From sequence record MT446412.1: 64,000 nt of DNA; one strand, 5' to 3'. The translations under genes were made by a program, and so were the position numbers. This DNA is from Escherichia virus TH41. Shown here piece after piece: positions 4,266 through 53,429 of this stretch (within the stretch, counting starts at the first letter, position 1; the number at the start of each line of letters is the position of its first letter). The notes under the pieces are model-generated. The model saw nothing but the letters and a program-made list of their open reading frames with translations, was not told where the DNA came from and did not search any database.

Positions 4266-5487
<1,222 letters not shown>

Positions 5488-5685: not shown

Positions 5686-5893
5686 CAAACACCATGAAGT
5701 TGAAGAAGAAGCTTATAAAGAGCTTCAGAAACTGGTAGGGCAGAATATGTCTCCTGCTCTTATCAACAACCTGGCTGCACTGCGTAATGACCTCAATGAA
5801 CGGTACAAGGGCGAATATTATGTTGAATTCGTTCCGCTGACTGAAGTCATTGACCGATTTATTGTTAATGTCAAGGTGCATACCGTCCATTAA
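5678..5893 (+). CDS. Hypothetical small protein
   Basis: 71 aa ORF overlapping the previous ORF by 8 nt. Confidence 0.4.
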   Translation: MYNKHHEVEEEAYKELQKLVGQNMSPALINNLAALRNDLNERYKGEYYVEFVPLTEVIDRFIVNVKVHTVH

Positions 5894-5918
5894 CGCTTTA
5901 AAAATTTTATGTTATAAT
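5892..5918 (+). promoter_or_regulatory. Middle-type (MotA-box-like) promoter
   Basis: aaCGCTTTA box, 12 nt, TATAAT; followed by GGGGTCTAGGTCC, related to the repeat at 24392, 29651 and 39817. Confidence 0.35.
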
Positions 5919-5964
5919 GGGGTCTAGGTCCTTTGGATACCCCAATAACTAAGCGAGAAAAGAA

Positions 5965-6243
5965 ATGTTTCCTACATATTCTGAAATTGTTAAAGTAGTT
6001 TTTAGTCAGATTGTATCTGATTATCTATACGAAAGCGTCGACGTGTCGACTGAACTAAAGGTGCATGGTCGTTTGTCTGCTATTCTGGAAATCATGTTCC
6101 CAGATGCAGTTGATGCAATCACTGTTCAACTCACACCTGGTGCAGCATTTGCAATTGTTCCGTTTAAAATTGATAACCACATTTTGGCTATTTCATGCAA
6201 AATGGACTTCCAGAAACAAACGGTAGTTGTCGAAGCAATTTAA
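5965..6243 (+). CDS. Hypothetical protein
   Basis: 92 aa ORF preceded by AAGCGAGAAAAGAA RBS-like sequence. Confidence 0.4.
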   Translation: MFPTYSEIVKVVFSQIVSDYLYESVDVSTELKVHGRLSAILEIMFPDAVDAITVQLTPGAAFAIVPFKIDNHILAISCKMDFQKQTVVVEAI

Positions 6244-9331: not shown

Positions 9332-9728
9332 GCTGTAGGTGATTCGCTACCTTAGTGCGGCTAGAAAATCGAGGAGCCGCCGAATTATCTGATTAATGAT
9401 TTGCGAATCATTATAGTTTTAGACCCCGATAATTTTGTGGTGTACCTCTTGAATGTTATTCTTATAGCGGCAAGTGCATGCTACCCCGAGGTGATGGCCA
9501 ATCGGGAGTACGCCTCAAGGCCTATATATCCATCAGTATATATCTTATCCTCGAGAAATCGAACCCGGAACCTTTAAGCTAACGGTGTGCAACAGATAAG
9601 AGCTATAAGGTATGATGACGAGGTTTATGGTTATCCTGTCGTTAAATATCCGAAACCTAATGTTCCCTTCGAGGGCTTGCGCAGGCAATGCCAATAAGTC
9701 CTGCATTCTATTTTAAAGAGAATTTAAT

Positions 9729-10378: not shown

Positions 10379-10407
10379 GTTTACTTTGGTACAGGTTATG
10401 ATATTAT
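10379..10407 (+). promoter_or_regulatory. Early-type promoter (GTTTAC-17-TATTAT) inside a 9-bp perfect inverted repeat
   Basis: ggtacaggt ... acctgtacc (about 10388-10418) flanks the -10 hexamer. Confidence 0.45.
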
Positions 10408-10445
10408 AGACCTGTACCAACAAATGAAAACAACTGGAGAATAAA

Positions 10446-21452: not shown

Positions 21453-22575
21453 TTTTAACCTTCGGTGGTTCTTCAACTTCGATAGGCTTACCATTGGTAA
21501 ACATATAGAGGTTTGTAATTGATGTATTGTTACTCACTTCATGAATAACTTCGTCTACGTAAAAATCATATTTGAATTGGTTCTTAGGGTCAAAGAAATT
21601 TATCTTATCACCCGGGGTCAGTTCAAAGTTCCCGTATGTTTTGCAATGTGCGTAACCGTCATATTGTGACATGGTTATTAATCGCTGAGCTTCCTCGAAA
21701 CCATTTCGGTATGTGTAATCTGCATAGCCCCCGGAACGAGATACCAGAATACTGTTTTGTCCTTCCCCAAAAGTTATTCTGGTTGCGTTCTTATCAAGGA
21801 ATGAATGCGCATACACGGTTGCGTTTTCATATGGTTTTCTTGTATGTTGGTTCGCCTTTGTTAACCATTCAAAATCGAAGGCTAAAGGAGTAGTCAGGTT
21901 TTGTACAAATTGCCCAACCAATCGAGGTTCCCCCACCACAAAATTAATTGGCTCTTGTGATGTTAGCCATTCATAATCCTGGATACTTATTCCATCAATA
22001 TCTTCCCATACAAAAACAAATTTATCAGTTTCTACCGACAGGCCAACTTCCCTTATGAATTCCATATATTGGTTCATCGAATCACACCATGGAACGTTAG
22101 GAGCATAAACGTTTATGCCGTTTATTGGTGGGGAAAGTAATGGTCTATCTTGATAAATTACCCCGGTCATTTCGACTAATGTTTCCTGTACGCTCGGGTA
22201 AAACATACGACTAAATTTCAAGTCTTCAATTTCGTGAATAGGAGCCAGCTGAATTGTAATTATGTTATCACCCTTTGAATCCACGGAAACAGCAAAGTGT
22301 TTACTTCCATATATTCTGGATTGGGTTCGGTCGGAGTTAGCATTCTTAACAGAAATCTGAATAACCTGTTCACCATTCATTTTTGTATGCAGGTTTTTCG
22401 TATCATAGAATTGCAAGAGCCCCTCGTTTCTTCCATAAAGGGAATCACGCATGGTTAACGTTGTAAAGGTGGCAGCTAGTTCCACAAAACGGTGTTCAAG
22501 CCATGCATCATAATCTTCGTAAAGGCGGATGCTGATATTAGGAAAGCCTTCACGCTGCATAGATTTAACTGTCAT
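21406..22575 (-). CDS. 27: Baseplate hub subunit gp27
   Basis: 389 aa; [20 protein letters not shown] and MFTNGKPIE regions resemble recalled T4 gp27. Confidence 0.85.
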
Positions 22576-23324
22576 TTTTTCAAGTCCTTCTCAACTAGTG
22601 ATAAAGCAATACCTCGTTCAATAGGAATCATATGCATGATGCTATCTAGCGAATATTGATTCTTTACCAGCAAGTGGTTAATTTGATAAAATATAAAGAC
22701 TTCATCCGGGTTAAGGATAAGCTTAAAGACGTCAAGCAGGTCAGTATATTCGGTTTTGTGCTTTTCACAACAGCCATATGTAAATGGAAGATAAACCGAA
22801 TGCATTTTCTTAAGGAGTGCTTCGAGGCTCTCTATATCAATTGCATCGATAACCTGCATCTTTGTTTCTTCAGGGAGGTCTTCCCAATTGTATTTTTGTT
22901 CCGAGTCTTCGACGGTCTGGATGGTATTCAATACAAGCTCTGACTTATCTTTATATTCCACTTCAGGGAACTTAAACTGTATTTTTATCCCGGCGGTTTC
23001 CATCGTTGGATTTACTAATGGACCCTGATTCATGTTAAACAAAGTCTGCTTTGTCTTTTTACATTTTTGACATTCAAACGCTACCGGGACTTTTGTCTTA
23101 CCGATAGAGGAAGTGAATACCTTCAGGAATATGTAAGGCCTCCATGCTTTTGGATATTCTCCAAAATAATCTTCCAACAGTTCGTCTAATAATTGTTTTT
23201 GTTCTTCGACGGGTTTGTTGTTCATGTCGTTTCGCACAAGCAGTAAATCACGGTAATCAGCGACTGTAAACGGTTTGAAACGATGAACTCCGTCTGGCAT
23301 TTCACATCTTACGATATTGGCCAT
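22572..23324 (-). CDS. 51: Baseplate hub assembly catalyst gp51
   Basis: 250 aa with Cys-rich region (CQKCKK...CCEKH); synteny. Confidence 0.7.
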
Positions 23325-23348
23325 AGAATCCCCTTTTATCTTTATTGA

Positions 23349-23360
23349 TATTTATAAATA
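23349..23360. promoter_or_regulatory. Divergent overlapping late promoters (TATTTATAAATA)
   Basis: TATAAATA on + (23353-23360, gene 26) and on - (23349-23356, gene 51) within one 12-nt element. Confidence 0.6.
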
Positions 23361-23377
23361 CAGTAAAGGAGCAAATT

Positions 23378-24001
23378 ATGACTTATGAATTTATTGTCCA
23401 AATTAAAAATAAAACTATAAATTGTAGGGCTTTTACCTTGCGCGAATACAAAGATTTGCTTCAGGCAAAATTAGAAAAGCGTATGGAACCTGCAATAATT
23501 GAACTGCTTAATAAATGCACTGATGCTAAAGGGCTAAACAAACAGGAAGCCGAGCTGCTTCTTATTAATCTCTGGGCAAATAGTCTCGGAGCTGTTAACG
23601 TCGAGCATACATGGGTATGTGAGTGCGGAAAGGAACAAGATATTCCTGTGACTATAAGTCGCGCAAACATCGTGGATGAGTCTGAAGTTATTCGTGATTT
23701 CGGGGCGTTTAAAATTAAATTCCGTTATCCTGGGCTATTTGAAGACGGTGATAAAGGAAAAATGATTGCTTGCTGTATCGAATATATTATCACGGAAGGC
23801 GGTGAGCGCATCGTTGTTGATGACTTAAATGAAGCCGAAATCGAGGACCTGTACAATGCAATTACCCTCGATGATATAAATGCACTAACAGAAGAACTTC
23901 TCAAGCCACAGGTCCAAATGGCTATTCCTATCTCTTGCGAGTGTGGAGCACATTCTGTCCATGTAATTAAGGGGCTTAAAGAATTCTTTAAGTTTATGTA
24001 A
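23378..24001 (+). CDS. 26: Baseplate hub subunit gp26
   Basis: 208 aa from ATG 23378 with RBS AAGGAG; synteny and size match T4 gp26. Confidence 0.7.
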   Translation: MTYEFIVQIKNKTINCRAFTLREYKDLLQAKLEKRMEPAIIELLNKCTDAKGLNKQEAELLLINLWANSLGAVNVEHTWVCECGKEQDIPVTISRANIVDESEVIRDFGAFKIKFRYPGLFEDGDKGKMIACCIEYIITEGGERIVVDDLNEAEIEDLYNAITLDDINALTEELLKPQVQMAIPISCECGAHSVHVIKGLKEFFKFM

Positions 24002-24391
24002 ATGAATATAAACAAAATGTATAGCGATGTGTCTCCCGACTTATCTACAAGTTGGGATAAAGACGTTGCTAAAGTAACCGGTGCAAGGTCTGTTAAGAAC
24101 AGTCTTCTGGGAATAATCACCACAAGAAAAGGGTCAAGGCCTTTTATGCCTGAATTTGGATGTGATATAAGTAATCAGCTTTTTGAGAATATCACTCCAT
24201 TAATCACAGATACCATTAAACGCAACATCGTCTCCGCTGTGCGGAACTTTGAACCAAGGATAAGCAATCTACAGGTTGCAGTTGTCCCTATGTATGATGA
24301 TAACTCCATTATCGTAACGGTTCAGTTCAGCATTGTTGATGACCCTGATACCCTCGAACAAATCAGGATTCAGCTAAGTCAAAACGGTTAA
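24002..24391 (+). CDS. 25: Baseplate wedge subunit gp25
   Basis: SLLGIITTRKGSRPFMPEFGCDISNQLFEN closely matches recalled T4 gp25. Confidence 0.8.
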   Translation: MNINKMYSDVSPDLSTSWDKDVAKVTGARSVKNSLLGIITTRKGSRPFMPEFGCDISNQLFENITPLITDTIKRNIVSAVRNFEPRISNLQVAVVPMYDDNSIIVTVQFSIVDDPDTLEQIRIQLSQNG

Positions 24392-24416
24392 TGCTTTAAT
24401 TTTATGGCTGTATAAT
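24392..24416 (+). promoter_or_regulatory. Middle promoter (MotA box aaTGCTTTA, 12 nt, TATAAT) for uvsY
   Basis: MotA-box consensus at about -30 plus -10 hexamer; followed by conserved GGTTCTAGACCC. Confidence 0.55.
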
Positions 24417-24444
24417 GGTTCTAGACCCTTACATTGGATACATT

Positions 24445-24879
24445 ATGAAAACAGAGATTGAATATAAGTTGGAAGTCTTTCAGGACGAGTTAGATGCAGA
24501 TTTAAAAATTGATGGTACACAACTTCAATATGAAACACAAAACAACGTTTTGTTGCATAGCAAATGGTTGAGATTGTATACCAACTGCAAGAAAGAAATA
24601 ATGCGTCTTGAGATTCAGAAGAAAACTGCACTGAAAAAACGACTAGACCATTATACGGGAAGGGGTGACCCAGGGGAAGAAGTATGCATGGATGTGTACG
24701 AGAAGTCAGAATTGAAAACAGTCATGGCCGCAGATTCAAGCGTGTTGAAGATTGATACTTCAATTCAATATTGGGCACTGCTCCAGGACTTCTGTAGCGC
24801 TGCATTAGATGGTGTTAAGTCACGAAGTTTCGCACTTAAACATATGTTAGAAATAAGACAATTTGAGGCGGGCAAGTAA
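24445..24879 (+). CDS. uvsY: Recombination mediator UvsY
   Basis: LQYETQNNVLLHSKWLRLY...KSELKTVMAADSSVLKIDTSIQYWALLQDFCSAALDGVKSRSFALKHMLEIRQFEAGK closely matches recalled T4 UvsY; start taken at the internal ATG 24445. Confidence 0.85.
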   Translation: MKTEIEYKLEVFQDELDADLKIDGTQLQYETQNNVLLHSKWLRLYTNCKKEIMRLEIQKKTALKKRLDHYTGRGDPGEEVCMDVYEKSELKTVMAADSSVLKIDTSIQYWALLQDFCSAALDGVKSRSFALKHMLEIRQFEAGK

Positions 24880-25112
24880 TGCGATATTCTATCGACGATG
24901 CGTTTAACCAAGACGAAGAGTTCGAAGAAGAAATTAAGTATATGATGAAGGAATGGAAATTGAATCGTGCAGATATTCGTATCTGCGCTGACCACCCTTG
25001 TGGTGAAGATGTTATCTATGTTAAAGGTAAATTTGCGGGATACATCGATGATGCGTTCTATTCTCACAATATGGGAATAGATACTGGTATGAGATACTTT
25101 AAGGAAAATTAA
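24879..25112 (+). CDS. Hypothetical protein (uvsY.-2 position)
   Basis: 77 aa ORF overlapping the uvsY stop. Confidence 0.5.
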   Translation: MRYSIDDAFNQDEEFEEEIKYMMKEWKLNRADIRICADHPCGEDVIYVKGKFAGYIDDAFYSHNMGIDTGMRYFKEN

Positions 25113-25223
25113 ATGAAAAATATTAGTAAGATTCTCGACGAGATGGTTATCTCTGCAAACCGAATAACCGAAATTGTTAATGAGATGAAAGCTCGTGCTG
25201 CTATTATGAAGAGCACTAAATAG
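25113..25223 (+). CDS. Small hypothetical protein (36 aa; not in ORF track)
   Basis: ATG with RBS AAGGAAAA; start adjacent to upstream stop. Confidence 0.3.
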   Translation: MKNISKILDEMVISANRITEIVNEMKARAAIMKSTK

Positions 25224-25251
25224 ATATGTAAGTTTAACTGAGGAGACAATC

Positions 25252-25419
25252 ATGTCAGATAAGATTTGTGTTGTCTGTAAAACTCCAATCGATTCTGCAT
25301 TGGTTGTGGATACAGACCAAGGTCCGGTGCATCCGGGCGCCTGTTATAATTATGTTCAGAGTTTGCCAGTTACGGAAAATACAGAAGAGCAACTGAACGA
25401 GACCCAACTTTTAATTTAG
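25252..25419 (+). CDS. Small Cys-containing hypothetical protein (55 aa; not in ORF track)
   Basis: RBS GAGGAG 6 nt upstream; CVVC...C pattern suggests a possible zinc ribbon. Confidence 0.3.
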   Translation: MSDKICVVCKTPIDSALVVDTDQGPVHPGACYNYVQSLPVTENTEEQLNETQLLI

Positions 25420-25445
25420 CTAGTGTTGTTAACCATTTTTGGTTT

Positions 25446-25478
25446 TGCCCCTTCCTTTTGGTTGGGGCCTTTTTATTT
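25446..25478 (+). terminator. Intrinsic terminator between convergent transcription units
   Basis: gcccc...ggggc hairpin followed by CTTTTTATTT. Confidence 0.5.
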
Positions 25479-25704
25479 AGAAATCTTCGTCTTCGTCTTC
25501 GTCCATATCCTCAAGCTCGGCACGTTTACCGGCAAGAGCGTCACGAACACTGATATCATCGGAATCTTTCAGTTCAGCTTCTTTGCTGCGTTTCTTATAA
25601 TAGCCTTCCAACTCCTTCAGACCGTCCATGGTCTGACAGGAACCAATCTTAGCCATAAAGCCTTCAATTGATGCTTCGTACATAATTTCTTCGAAGGATT
25701 TCAT
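25477..25704 (-). CDS. UvsW.1 small acidic protein
   Basis: 75 aa with acidic C-terminus (EDMDEDEDEDF), directly downstream of uvsW as in T4. Confidence 0.6.
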   Translation of the reverse strand: MKSFEEIMYEASIEGFMAKIGSCQTMDGLKELEGYYKKRSKEAELKDSDDISVRDALAGKRAELEDMDEDEDEDF

Positions 25705-27203
25705 TATATTTCCACCTGTTTAATTACATAATTGAATTTTTCGTCTGCATACCGCTGAATACGTTCTAGTGCATGTTTAAGCGCAAAGTTAATATGAACA
25801 TATTTCTTTTTAGCGTTTGCTGATTTTGGTTTGACCCCCATATCATCCACGATGTCCCACACGTTTGCGGTCGATTTGGATTCATGTTTTCGAAGCACGC
25901 GTCCAATTGTCTGGAGTACAATTACCTTTGACTTGACCGGGTGAGCGAAAATAATATGATGGAGGTTTTTAACGGAAATCCCCGTTGAGAATACACCATA
26001 TGAAGCTACAACAATAATTCCCTTTCCATTCTCTGCCATGACCTTCAGAGCATTACGAGTTTCGGTATCGACTTCCCCAGAAACATAATACACTTTTTCA
26101 TGACCAGCTTCCTTAAGCATTTCAAACATCGATTTACCATGCTCGATATTCTTAAACATCAAAAAGACGTTTTCATCTTTTTTAGAAAGCTTGAGTGCAA
26201 GGTTTGTTACCCATTTATTTCGGCGTGCAGCTTTTGTAATTACCTTGATTTCATCCTGATAAGTTTTACCTTTCATTTTAACGGTGAATTCATCAGGGTA
26301 ACGAAGGAAAATACTATTTATTTTAAGGTCAGTAACCTGACCATCTTCCATTAATTTAGATGTTGATACTGGTTTAAAGATATCACCAAACAGACCCATA
26401 TATTGCATAAGGTTGGCTTTGCCATCACGGAGTGAACCTGACAGACCAAATTTAAACATGCAATTCGTAAGGCCTTCGATAACCGTCGAAATCGATTTAC
26501 CTGTAGCCATATGACATTCGTCATTCATAAACTGACCGAACTGTTCAAACCATTCTTTAGGTTGTTTTACAGCCGTCTGATAAGTCGATACATAAATCAT
26601 CGCATCAGAATCGCGTTTAGTCCCGGAACGAATACCCAGACAAGCTGCACGAGGGAAAAGCCGATAATCAACAAAGTCATTAATCATCTGGTCAACAAGG
26701 GCCGTTGTAGGAACAAGGATAAGTACCTTGCCTTCATAGTTCTCGAGATAATATCGCGCCAGAAGCGCCTGGATGAGGCTTTTACCTGCAGACGTAGGTA
26801 AGTTCAGAATCTTTCTTCTGTTGACCAGACCATCATATACGGCGTCAGATTGATACCAATGGGGCGTTATCTTGGTATTGCCTGAATAGATTTCTTTTGA
26901 CTCGACCCATTTGTCGAATTCTTCGCGAGAGATTTCTTCTTTCTCGGTGATTTGCGGGTCAATCCAGAATGAATAACCAAACTGGTCAGCGAACTTTTTA
27001 ATTTGATTAACCAAACCGTATGGTAATTTACGATTGTAATCCAGGAGGCGGATTCGTCCGTCCCAAACTCCCTGCTTGAACTTTGGATTGAAGCGATAGT
27101 TTTCAGCTTCGAAGCTGAAGTAATCACGGAGTTCGTAGAAGATTCCATCTTCACATTCAACATGCACGTGACTAAAATTTAGAAAGTTGATTTTAATATC
27201 CAT
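25704..27203 (-). CDS. uvsW: UvsW DNA/RNA helicase
   Basis: N-terminus MDIKINFLNFSHVHVECEDG resembles T4 UvsW; SF2 helicase motifs (NLPTSAGKS, DECH); start taken at internal ATG 27203. Confidence 0.85.
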   Translation of the reverse strand: MDIKINFLNFSHVHVECEDGIFYELRDYFSFEAENYRFNPKFKQGVWDGRIRLLDYNRKLPYGLVNQIKKFADQFGYSFWIDPQITEKEEISREEFDKWVESKEIYSGNTKITPHWYQSDAVYDGLVNRRKILNLPTSAGKSLIQALLARYYLENYEGKVLILVPTTALVDQMINDFVDYRLFPRAACLGIRSGTKRDSDAMIYVSTYQTAVKQPKEWFEQFGQFMNDECHMATGKSISTVIEGLTNCMFKFGLSGSLRDGKANLMQYMGLFGDIFKPVSTSKLMEDGQVTDLKINSIFLRYPDEFTVKMKGKTYQDEIKVITKAARRNKWVTNLALKLSKKDENVFLMFKNIEHGKSMFEMLKEAGHEKVYYVSGEVDTETRNALKVMAENGKGIIVVASYGVFSTGISVKNLHHIIFAHPVKSKVIVLQTIGRVLRKHESKSTANVWDIVDDMGVKPKSANAKKKYVHINFALKHALERIQRYADEKFNYVIKQVEI

Positions 27204-29646: not shown

Positions 29647-29650
29647 CCTT

Positions 29651-29678
29651 TTTGCTTCAAATAAAATTGTGGTATAAT
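29651..29678 (+). promoter_or_regulatory. Middle promoter (MotA box TTTGCTTCA, 13 nt, TATAAT) upstream of rnlB
   Basis: MotA-box consensus plus -10; followed by GGTTCTAGACCCC as at 24417. Confidence 0.5.
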
Positions 29679-29776
29679 GGTTCTAGACCCCTTTGCGACT
29701 ATTAATTCCTTTCAGAGAAAGAAAGTATAGTGGGTCTAATTTATAATGATATTTATAACATCAAAAGTGAGAGATT

Positions 29777-30784
29777 ATGTTTAAGAAATACAACAGCCTT
29801 GAAAATCACTATAACAACAAGTTCATTGAAAAGATTCGCCTGCAAGGCTTCACCAGCGGTGAATGGGTAGCGCGTGAAAAGATTCATGGCACCAACTTTT
29901 CATTAATCATTGAACAAGACAATGTAACATGTGCGAAACGCACTGGACCTATCTTGCCTGCAGAAGATTTCTATGGTTATGAAATTGTATTAAAGAACTA
30001 TGCAGATTCTATTAAATCTGTGCAGAAACTTTTGCAGGATATTAATTACCAGGCATACCAGATTTATGGTGAGTTTGCCGGGGCAGGTATCCAGAAGAAT
30101 GTGGATTACGGTGATAAAGATTTTTATGTATTTGATATCCGCGTTACTAAAGAAGATGGTTTTGAATCCGTCCTGACTGATACCTTGATGGAAGCCTTCT
30201 GTATTATCCACAAGTTTAAGGTTGCTCCGCGGCTGGCTACTGGAAGTTTTGAAGACTTGATTAAGCTCCCTAATGACCTGGATTCTGTTGTCCCTGATTA
30301 CAATTTTACAGTGGATAACGCGGGTTTGACTACAGCAAATACCACTGATTTTGATGCAAAGGTGGAAGGTAAAGTATTCACTGCTGAAGGATTTGTATTA
30401 AAACCTGATGTTCCTGCATGGTTACCTAACGGTGAGCGCGTAGCGATTAAATGCAAGAACTCTAAATTCAGTGAAAAGAAAAAGTCCGATAAGCCTATTA
30501 AGGCTGCAGTGGTTCTGAGCCAAGATGATATGGATTTGCTGTGGAATTTCACTGATTATGTGACTGTTAACCGTATCAACAATGTTATCAGTAAAATTGG
30601 GGAAGTAACACCTAAGGATTTTGGAAAGGTAATGGGGTTAACAGTCCAAGATATTCTAGAAGAAGCGGGTCGTGAAGGTCTTGAATTATCCCTGACGGAA
30701 AATCCTGTTGAAGTTAAAAAGCAACTCATCGCAAATGTAAGAGAAACATTAAGACATGTTTGGATTGCATTAATTAGTGAATAA
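29777..30784 (+). CDS. rnlB: RNA ligase 2 (gp24.1)
   Basis: [20 protein letters not shown]...[11 protein letters not shown] (nucleotidyltransferase KxHG)...[21 protein letters not shown] closely matches recalled T4 Rnl2. Confidence 0.9.
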
Positions 30785-39743: not shown

Positions 39744-39816
39744 CTAGGTAATATGATTCATCATCTCAAGATAATGGCTTCCCAGAATCAACCACAGGAG
39801 TCCGTAGAACCGATTA

Positions 39817-39842
39817 TGCTTTTATTTATAACACTGTATAAT
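39817..39842 (+). promoter_or_regulatory. Middle-promoter-like element oriented antisense to genes 18/19, inside a 10-bp inverted repeat
   Basis: taTGCTTTT box, 13 nt, TATAAT, GGTTCTACGG; ccgtagaacc (39802-39811) and ggttctacgg (39843-39852) form a perfect inverted repeat; a minus-strand TATAAATA (39823-39830) overlaps it. Confidence 0.35.
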
Positions 39843-39883
39843 GGTTCTACGGTTTCTAACTGATTAATTCTAAGCGATGATAA

Positions 39884-52560: not shown

Positions 52561-53429
52561 TATACCGGTACTCCGATTGTTTGGGCGGAAATTACTTTAA
52601 TAGCGAGCTTCATGGCAGTGGGTGAGCTTATAGCCGCCTGAATGATATCCTGGTTATCAATTCTAAAATCGATGGCATATATCTCATCTTCTTCATTAGT
52701 TTGTCCACGTCTGATTACAGCGTATTCTGTGCTATATACCTTGCGGTCCTTAAGGTCGATGTAAAGTAATATTTCTGATGCTTTGTATTTAGTTTCGTCT
52801 GTTGAAATAGCCGTCAGCATCAATTTGATAGTTTTATAATCTGCACGGAAAGCAAGTGGAATATCACGAACAACCGAGCTCATATTGTATGTTTTGTCGA
52901 GCAATACAGATTGGTTGCCAAACATACTTTCAATTTTGTAGTCCCATGTCCCTACGCCGTTAGCATCGTCAATACACCACAATGTAATTTTTGTATAAGG
53001 CTGAGTAAATTTCATTTTGTTCGTTGCAGCAGTCAGGAATGAATCCGTGCCTTGTAGTTCAACTTCCAGAGGCAACGAGGTGGATAATGAACCATTGGAG
53101 TTAATAAAGATAACACCTTCGCCTGCTTTACCTTTTGCAATTCTTGCAGTGATAACACCTTCGGCAGTATTGACATCCCGCATAGAACCGAGAGCAACAG
53201 TTGAGTTCCATTCAATGATATTTGTGGCTTTTTGATAGTAGCCGGTCGCATGAAGTACCTGGGAGTTTTCTCCATTATTCACAGAGTACAGACGCTGGTC
53301 GCCGAATGTATTATACAAACTGTCTAAATCCACGTTCAGTTTACGACCGCCTTCATATAGAATATCACCGGTGCTGGCGTTACCAATCTCGCCGATGTCT
53401 ACTAATAATTTTGGGGTTTGATTAATCAT
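52560..53429 (-). CDS. 9: Baseplate wedge long-tail-fibre connector gp9
   Basis: 289 aa (T4 gp9 288 aa); synteny. Confidence 0.75.
   Translation of the reverse strand: MINQTPKLLVDIGEIGNASTGDILYEGGRKLNVDLDSLYNTFGDQRLYSVNNGENSQVLHATGYYQKATNIIEWNSTVALGSMRDVNTAEGVITARIAKGKAGEGVIFINSNGSLSTSLPLEVELQGTDSFLTAATNKMKFTQPYTKITLWCIDDANGVGTWDYKIESMFGNQSVLLDKTYNMSSVVRDIPLAFRADYKTIKLMLTAISTDETKYKASEILLYIDLKDRKVYSTEYAVIRRGQTNEEDEIYAIDFRIDNQDIIQAAISSPTAMKLAIKVISAQTIGVPV

Follow-up and report, generated by a model that had tools for sequence, protein, structure and literature searches.

Results

Genes and features of the window

The DNA analysed here, a stretch of 64,000 nucleotides (the window), carries prereplicative genes on the + strand (rnlA, alc, pseT, cd, 31, rIII, 30, alt, uvsY and rnlB) and late genes, such as 18, 19 and 23, on the - strand. 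Positions 22000-27000 share 99.3% identity with Escherichia phage UPEC01 and 98.4% with phage vB_EcoM_RZ (RZ), both of which are classified in Straboviridae, Tevenvirinae, genus Gaprivervirus; judged by its sequence, the window belongs to a T4-like phage of this genus. A MotA-like activator and an anti-sigma factor are annotated in the same-genus RZ genome, outside the window, and the RZ anti-sigma factor gene adjoins the holin gene, which is the position of asiA in T4. In UPEC01, a ~690-bp insertion with an annotated group I intron endonuclease (23705-24304) splits uvsW; it is absent from the window (~25.7 kb). Three identical UUCG-loop terminator hairpins (AAAGGGCTTCGGCCCTTTTT) are located at 1084 (+), 14639 (+) and 46888 (-), two of which are directly followed by a late-promoter-like sequence, TATAAATA.

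Four sites on the + strand (S1 to S4) share a promoter-like anatomy, and all four were found where the initial annotation had placed them. S1 (5891..5934) consists of a MotA-like box, TAACGCTTTA, at 5891-5900 (CGCTTTA at 5894-5900), a 12-nt spacer, TATAAT at 5913-5918 and a downstream extension, GGGGTCTAGGTCCTTT, at 5919-5934; its predicted +1, by orthology with mapped T4 starts, is A5926. It is situated in the pseT-cd hyperplastic region, flanked by a small ORF whose end is at 5893 and a 92-aa ORF that begins at 5965, and has a counterpart in RZ at 142372. S2 (24389..24431) is PuvsY, the positional orthologue of the T4 PuvsY/oriF promoter (T4 rep_origin at 115321). Its box, TAATGCTTTA, at 24389-24398 (TGCTTTA at 24392-24398) overlaps the gene 25 stop codon and is followed by a 12-nt spacer, TATAAT at 24411-24416 and the extension GGTTCTAGACCCTTA at 24417-24431, with a predicted +1 at A24423 and the uvsY ATG at 24445. 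S3, the rnlB promoter (29650..29693), has the box TTTTGCTTCA at 29650-29659 (TGCTTCA at 29653-29659), a 13-nt spacer, TATAAT at 29673-29678 and the extension GGTTCTAGACCCCTT at 29679-29693; the predicted +1 is A29685, and the rnlB ATG lies 92 nt downstream at 29777. S4, which spans 39802..39855 with its enclosing inverted repeat, is an orphan located between genes 19 and 18 and directed antisense into gene 18. Its box, ATGCTTTTA, occupies 39816-39824 (TGCTTTT at 39817-39823; longer form TTATGCTTTT) and is followed by a 13-nt spacer, TATAAT at 39837-39842 and GGTTCTACGGTTT, in which GGTTCTA is succeeded by CGGTTT. The predicted S4 start is A39849; the gene 18 stop codon (39884) lies 35 nt past it, and no ORF follows. 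The sense copies thus precede uvsY (S2), rnlB (S3) and a small ORF (S1).

The -10 hexamer is a perfect TATAAT in all four copies, with spacers of 12, 12, 13 and 13 nt, and a MotA box of the form (a/t)(a/t)(a/t)TGCTT(t/c)A centred near -30 was recognised at S1-S4, the CGCTT variant of the S1 box being present in the mapped T4 promoter PnrdC.7 as well. The earlier reading of the sites as MotA box plus -10 promoters is supported, and the genus encodes both MotA and AsiA; we infer from sequence that S1-S4 are MotA-dependent.

Predicted start sites and the transcribed portion

The transcription starts of two T4 promoters with the same extension have been mapped, PuvsY at 115371 and PnrdC.7 at 53325 (PMC2988021 Table 1), and both transcripts begin at the seventh base past the -10, which is the A of TCT[A]. 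By orthology with these starts, the A of TCT[A] is the predicted +1 in S1-S4. With +1 at this base, GGTTCT would be untranscribed discriminator DNA and the RNA would receive only AGACCC. The proposal that the transcripts begin with the conserved segment is therefore retained for AGACCC but not for GGTTCT.

UPEC01 and RZ annotate uvsY from an ATG inside the -10 hexamer (TATA-ATG-G; window 24415), whereas the ATG at 24445 is favoured by alignment with T4 UvsY and by the predicted transcription start at 24423. The 10 extra N-terminal residues annotated for UvsY in UPEC01 and RZ are probably wrong.

A half-copy of the element, TATAGTGGGTCTA, is located inside the rnlB leader at 29726-29738 (+). 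Within it, GGGTCT (29732-29737) is complementary to the AGACCC(C) with which the S3 transcript begins, and the two pair in a 5'-terminal hairpin (29685-29737) with an MFE of -13.1 kcal/mol (z = -2.2). On this folding prediction, the half-copy is more likely the 3' arm of the hairpin than a second promoter. The rnlB hairpin is a possible mRNA-stabilising structure.

Strength of the repeat

The 18-mer TATAATGGTTCTAGACCC occurs exactly only at S2 (uvsY) and S3 (rnlB), and a search allowing up to three mismatches returned these 2 matches in the window against 0.02 expected. S1 differs from the 18-mer by a 1-nt insertion (an extra G) and two changes, and S4 shares only TATAATGGTTCTA, diverging after TCTA. 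The four-copy repeat described in the initial annotation is thus real but looser than its title implied, the exact 18-mer being present in two of four copies. With up to one mismatch, TATAATGGKTCTA had 5 matches in the window (0.14 expected), and TCTAG[AG][CT]CC, present three times in the window, directly follows TATAATGG each time.

A weight matrix was built from only the 15 nt after the -10, with a training set that included the window copies and so made the test partly circular; by this matrix S1-S3 ranked at the top of the window (18.1-19.9 bits, compared with 15.5 for the best shuffle), and S4, at 12.8 bits, fell inside the background. The top matches in RZ and T4 were likewise all promoter-adjacent. 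A chance origin of the repeat was ruled out by the shuffles and the weight-matrix census. Two partial look-alikes may be chance matches: TATAATGGTCTAG on the minus strand at 24637-24649, inside uvsY, and TATAGTTTTAGACCCC at 9412-9430 (+), which has no MotA-box geometry.

A subclass of middle promoters

In the accessible literature, a middle promoter is defined by a MotA box, a spacer and a -10, with TGn in about half of the promoters (PMC2988021, PMC1524935, PMC6755090), and the accessible literature on middle promoters makes no mention of the downstream block or of the two opposite-strand T4 copies described below. The published start sites (PMC2988021 Table 1) served as the anchor for an alignment of the 58 mapped T4 middle promoters. 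Only PuvsY and PnrdC.7 have the extension, PnrdD and P55 bear a partial resemblance to it, and nearly all of the 58 have A+T-rich discriminators. In the window, the extension is absent from the MotA-box promoters at 5181, 7310, 8541 and 13050. These four promoters and most of the 58 in T4 rule out the extension as a general middle-promoter feature; since most of the 58 work without it, it is dispensable for MotA-dependent transcription. The same comparison bears out the initial claim that the conserved sequence goes beyond the accepted definition of middle promoters.

Conservation among related phages

A census of the complete RZ genome yielded seven copies, namely counterparts of the window's four, one upstream of the gene in the nrdC.7 position, one at srd/modA (22232, +) and one at gene 3/gene 2 (83676, +), the last two being on the opposite strand from the other five. 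T4 (AF158101) has four copies, at the same map positions as in RZ; those at srd/modA (11885, +, TATAATGAATCTAAGTCC) and gene 3/gene 2 (75988, +, TATAATGGGTCTAAGTCC) are not among the 58 tabulated promoters with mapped starts. In the RZ and T4 censuses, all strong matches to the downstream 15-mer directly follow a TATAAT with a MotA box. The motif search in a complete genome and in related phages, which the initial annotation had named as its own refutation test, thus found the extension enriched at promoters.

Orthologous loci were fetched from IMG/VR via the UvsY, gp3, Srd, gp19 and RnlB proteins. Several genera have counterparts of the uvsY, rnlB, 3/2, srd and 18/19 copies, in which the spacers have diverged and the extension has been kept (examples from other genera are TATAATGGTTCTAGTCCTTCC, TATAATGGTTTTAGGTCCTTCC, TATAATGGTCCTAGGTCTGTTCC and TATAATGGTTCTGAGGTTCTACC). 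In distant A+T-rich relatives, the uvsY upstream region (3 loci) showed neither the element nor a visible MotA-type box. Mean pairwise identity within orthologous sets was 0.64-0.83 for -6..-1 and 0.46-0.67 for +1..+9, and 0.33-0.60 for the spacer and 0.35-0.46 for +10..+27; because the discriminator varies in length by 1 nt, this ungapped comparison understates the identity of +1..+9.

Column by column, 30 representative copies conserve G-5 (26/30), T-3 (26/30), Y-2 (29/30), T-1 (23/30) and A+1 (22/30), together with R+2, G+3 and pyrimidines at +5..+9 (27-28/30 at +5..+7). Information is at background level past +9, and therefore the module extends from about -35 to +9, with the extension proper covering -6 to about +9 and a module consensus of TATAAT-GGTTCT-A-GGTCCTTT. 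Copies that share a genome resemble one another no more closely than orthologues from different genera do, and concerted evolution of the copies inside one genome was not seen. On these comparative grounds, the extension is real and selected, and represents an evolutionarily constrained refinement of the middle-promoter class.

Orphan copies and inverted repeats

Three orphan copies point antisense into modA, gene 2 and gene 18 and are kept across genera, and no ORF was found behind any of the three. The srd/modA and 3/2 orphans of T4 and RZ are consensus MotA-type promoters on the strand opposite all neighbouring genes; like them, S4 would yield an untranslated antisense transcript. The T4 18/19 intergenic region contains no copy, and S4 is therefore lineage-restricted, though shared with two other genera.

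The S4 promoter is enclosed by a perfect 10-bp inverted repeat (CCGTAGAACC at 39802-39811 and GGTTCTACGG at 39843-39852), because of which its downstream sequence (TCTACGG) departs from that of the other copies. At the same position, the 18/19 orphans of the two other genera carry inverted repeats of different sequence (ATCCCAGGCT and ACCTGAAG). The sequences suggest additional selection for a hairpin that lies in the late 18-19 transcript and shares sequence with the antisense promoter. Inverted repeats were rejected as a general property of these promoters: they are significant only at the 18/19 orphans and some rnlB copies, and weakly at 3/2, and are absent from S1-S3.

Homology between the window and RZ breaks after S4 +9 (~39855), where RZ has an extra 201-aa ORF, gp19.1, and homology among close relatives also breaks after +12 of the srd copy. 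Since these breaks fall a few bases past the module, variable DNA abuts the S4 and srd promoters.

Early promoters

The early promoters of RZ and T4 also favour C-T-A at the start, and this start context is thus general in these phages. Their long downstream consensus is CCCATCAACTACTGAGGAG in RZ and ACAACTATCAACTACTGA in T4. An early-type promoter in the window at 10380-10435 (+), TTTACT-ttGGTACAGGTtatga-TATTAT-agACCTGTACCaac, has an 11-bp inverted repeat flanking its -10, and many RZ and T4 early promoters have a like arrangement, in which a spacer arm is complementary to about -4..+3.

Discussion

With moderate confidence, we propose that the four sites form a conserved MotA/AsiA-dependent subclass of middle promoters in which the extra bases are most likely part of the core promoter. 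From the observed anatomy, conservation, enrichment and orthology to mapped T4 promoters, we infer a kinetic role for the extension. Members of the subclass share a MotA box, a spacer of 12-13 nt whose end usually supplies the TGn of an extended -10, a perfect TATAAT and a fixed 6-7 nt discriminator that starts with GG and ends with TCT; predicted initiation is at A, with G or A next, and the first 9 transcribed bases are pyrimidine-rich (A-R-G-N-Y-C-T-T-T). Most copies have TGn or GTG ahead of the -10 and G at -6/-5. Region 1.2 of sigma70 prefers G two bases after the -10, and the favoured start and core-recognition-element context is a pyrimidine at -1, a purine at +1 and G at +2. The G at -6/-5 may therefore make the discriminator contact of sigma70 region 1.2, and T(-1)A(+1)G(+2) may provide the preferred start context together with a core-recognition-element contact. 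Combined with an extended -10, these contacts would make open complexes very stable, fix the start site and leave the promoter largely independent of a -35. The strong promoter context of lambda PR, GATAAT-GGTTGC-A, likewise has GGTT after its -10. Because copies within a genome are no more alike than orthologues in different genera, their reader is expected to be a common and slowly evolving one, such as the host RNAP, and a co-evolving phage factor or gene conversion is disfavoured.

Several observations stand outside this core-promoter reading. S4 matches the subclass only as far as TCTA, which counts against it. T-3, Y-2, G+3 and the +4..+9 pyrimidine run (YCCTTT) are beyond known RNAP contacts, and the conserved orphans suggest that the transcript, or the act of transcription, has a function that a purely kinetic role does not cover. 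It is these conserved positions with no known contact, and the three cross-genus orphans, that keep our confidence in a purely kinetic reading moderate.

An operator at -6..+9 could accommodate the unexplained positions: a phage or host DNA-binding protein sitting over the start would co-regulate the set, for instance in late shut-off. About 15 bp are conserved past the known RNAP contacts and centred on +1, the element is limited to a subset of middle promoters, and TCTAGA is palindromic in S2 and S3. However, the palindromic core emphasised in the initial annotation is confined to S2 and S3 among the four copies. Elsewhere the core is not kept, the corresponding bases being TCTAAG in T4 and TTTAGG, TCTGAG or TTCAGG in other genera. 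The consensus, GGTTCTAGGTCCTTT, has no dyad symmetry, which is thus not the selected feature, and a palindromic TCTAGA operator is ruled out. Moreover, the copies of one genome show no genus-specific co-variation that would hint at a co-evolving phage factor, and we know of no sequence-specific repressor of T4 middle promoters. We consider an operator of any kind unlikely.

A broader proposal, to which we assign a similarly low likelihood, is that -6..+9 marks a dedicated middle-time regulon whose reader goes beyond basal polymerase contacts, being either a phage factor or a property of the nascent RNA or DNA, for instance R-loops or open complexes that persist. The orphans would be the purest members of such a regulon, and their antisense RNAs or priming R-loops might time early shut-off, restrain late genes or seed replication.

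Antisense transcription has long been reported in T4. The published T4 dRNA-seq start sites include 22 antisense TSSs; a literature search on anti-late RNA found nothing usable. The three conserved gene-less promoters are candidate sources of T4 antisense transcription, or possibly extra R-loop sites.

The transcribed half of the block might alternatively act as a linear 5'-terminal RNA tag, 5'-A-R-G-N-Y-C-U-U-U, that sets stability, NAD capping or processing. Positions +1..+9 are better conserved than +10..+27, and the RNA itself may matter where orphans have no ORF, but -6..-1, which makes up half of the conserved block, stays outside the transcript. NAD capping requires an initial A, which every copy has; NAD initiation, however, prefers R-2/R-1, which C-2/T-1 does not fit. 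A shared RNA structure or known RNA family was rejected, given that the four leaders fold differently (z-scores 0.0, +1.2, -2.2 and -0.1) and Rfam has no matches in the window. The main text of a preprint describes T4 RNAs that are NAD-capped from canonical start sites, yet contains 0 occurrences each of uvsY and nrdC (bioRxiv 10.1101/2024.04.04.588121). We regard an RNA tag as very unlikely.

The copies might also be oriF-type origin modules, in which a middle-promoter transcript forms a persistent R-loop in downstream A+T-rich DNA and primes the leading strand, the orphans being origins. S2 is the positional orthologue of T4 PuvsY, which is oriF; oriF and oriG require no more than a middle promoter and an unwinding element downstream of it (PMC3016281); oriG, inside gene 34, is an antisense orphan too; and the three conserved orphans have no ORF. 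The T4 copies (11.9, 53.3, 76.0 and 115.4 kb) lie within ~3-6 kb of oriA, oriC, oriE and oriF, but such proximity has a chance probability of ~4% and origin mapping is coarse. Additionally, oriC is near rI.-1 and oriE depends on an early promoter (PMC3016281), both of which we count against this explanation. An origin-specific motif was rejected: the oriG promoter has TATAATGGTCCCAGAG rather than the element in T4 and RZ, the review of these origins describes scant homology of oriF to oriG, no motif common to origins and R-loop formation that is sequence-independent (PMC3016281), and A+T content at +1..+50 is unremarkable, at only 60-68% against a window mean of 58.7 ± 7.2. There is accordingly little chance that the element is an origin module.

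It is equally improbable that the copies are promoter cassettes serving mainly as dispersed homology for recombinational shuffling, in the manner of PeSLs and PmSLs but for middle promoters, with the extension as inherited cassette sequence. T4-like phages do have repeated promoter cassettes conserved beyond the RNAP elements, including PmSLs in vibriophage nt-1 (PMC4122927). The end of window-RZ homology after S4 +9, the similar break after srd +12 and the position of S1 in a hyperplastic region would fit such cassettes. Nevertheless, the defining PeSL feature, a stem-loop directly upstream, is missing from S1-S3, where the promoter directly adjoins the preceding ORF's stop codon and no hairpin is present, and the S4 inverted repeat encloses its promoter rather than preceding it. 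The copies occupy fixed orthologous core positions (uvsY, 3/2, 18/19) across genera, share only ~30 bp and are not homogenised within one genome. Finally, a second MotA box at +4..+10 (TCCTTT compared with TGCTTT) was discarded, as T4 PuvsY (GTCCATCC) does not fit it.

The textbook example of sigma appropriation is provided by T4 middle promoters, whose definition stops at the -10. A subclass that includes the much-used PuvsY/oriF has a further conserved block over the start site, which offers a testable handle on what else shapes initiation by the AsiA/MotA-modified polymerase. If the block is only an optimal discriminator and start context, it is a modest refinement of the consensus and a useful annotation aid, as at uvsY, where the annotated start codon falls inside the -10. 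Conserved cassettes of early promoters, and PmSLs in one vibriophage, were already known (PMC4122927).

Among known systems, the PeSLs and PmSLs (Arbiol 2010; Comeau 2014) resemble the present copies in being dispersed repeated promoters with conservation beyond the RNAP hexamers, some of them beside indels. PeSLs, however, are early promoters with an upstream stem-loop and a downstream SD, clustered in hyperplastic regions, whereas the window copies are MotA-type, mostly have no upstream stem-loop and occupy fixed orthologous core positions. The T4 origins oriF and oriG also have a middle promoter, which in the origins is followed by easily unwound DNA; S2 is the uvsY promoter, and oriG resembles S4 as an antisense orphan within late genes; in contrast, the oriG promoter is without the TCTARG-YCC element. 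The function of T4 R-loop origins is reportedly independent of the sequence downstream of the promoter, and S1, S3 and S4 are only putative origins.

The preferred core-promoter reading has its closest parallels in sigma70 promoters. Lambda PR (GATAATGGTTGCA) and GGG-discriminator promoters share GG(T)T after the -10, a 6-7 nt discriminator and a start at A preceded by a pyrimidine, but an optimal-discriminator model does not account for T-3, Y-2, G+3 and the +4..+9 pyrimidines seen here. With T4 middle promoters, the four sites have in common a MotA box near -30, a spacer of 12 ± 1 bp, a sigma70 TATAAT and often TGn, and T4 PuvsY (TATAATGAATCTAAGTCC) and PnrdC.7 (TATAATGGTTCTAAGCCC) carry the same extension. 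The published consensus stops at the -10; in the subclass described here, and only in that subclass, it continues for ~15 bp more, from -6 to +9.
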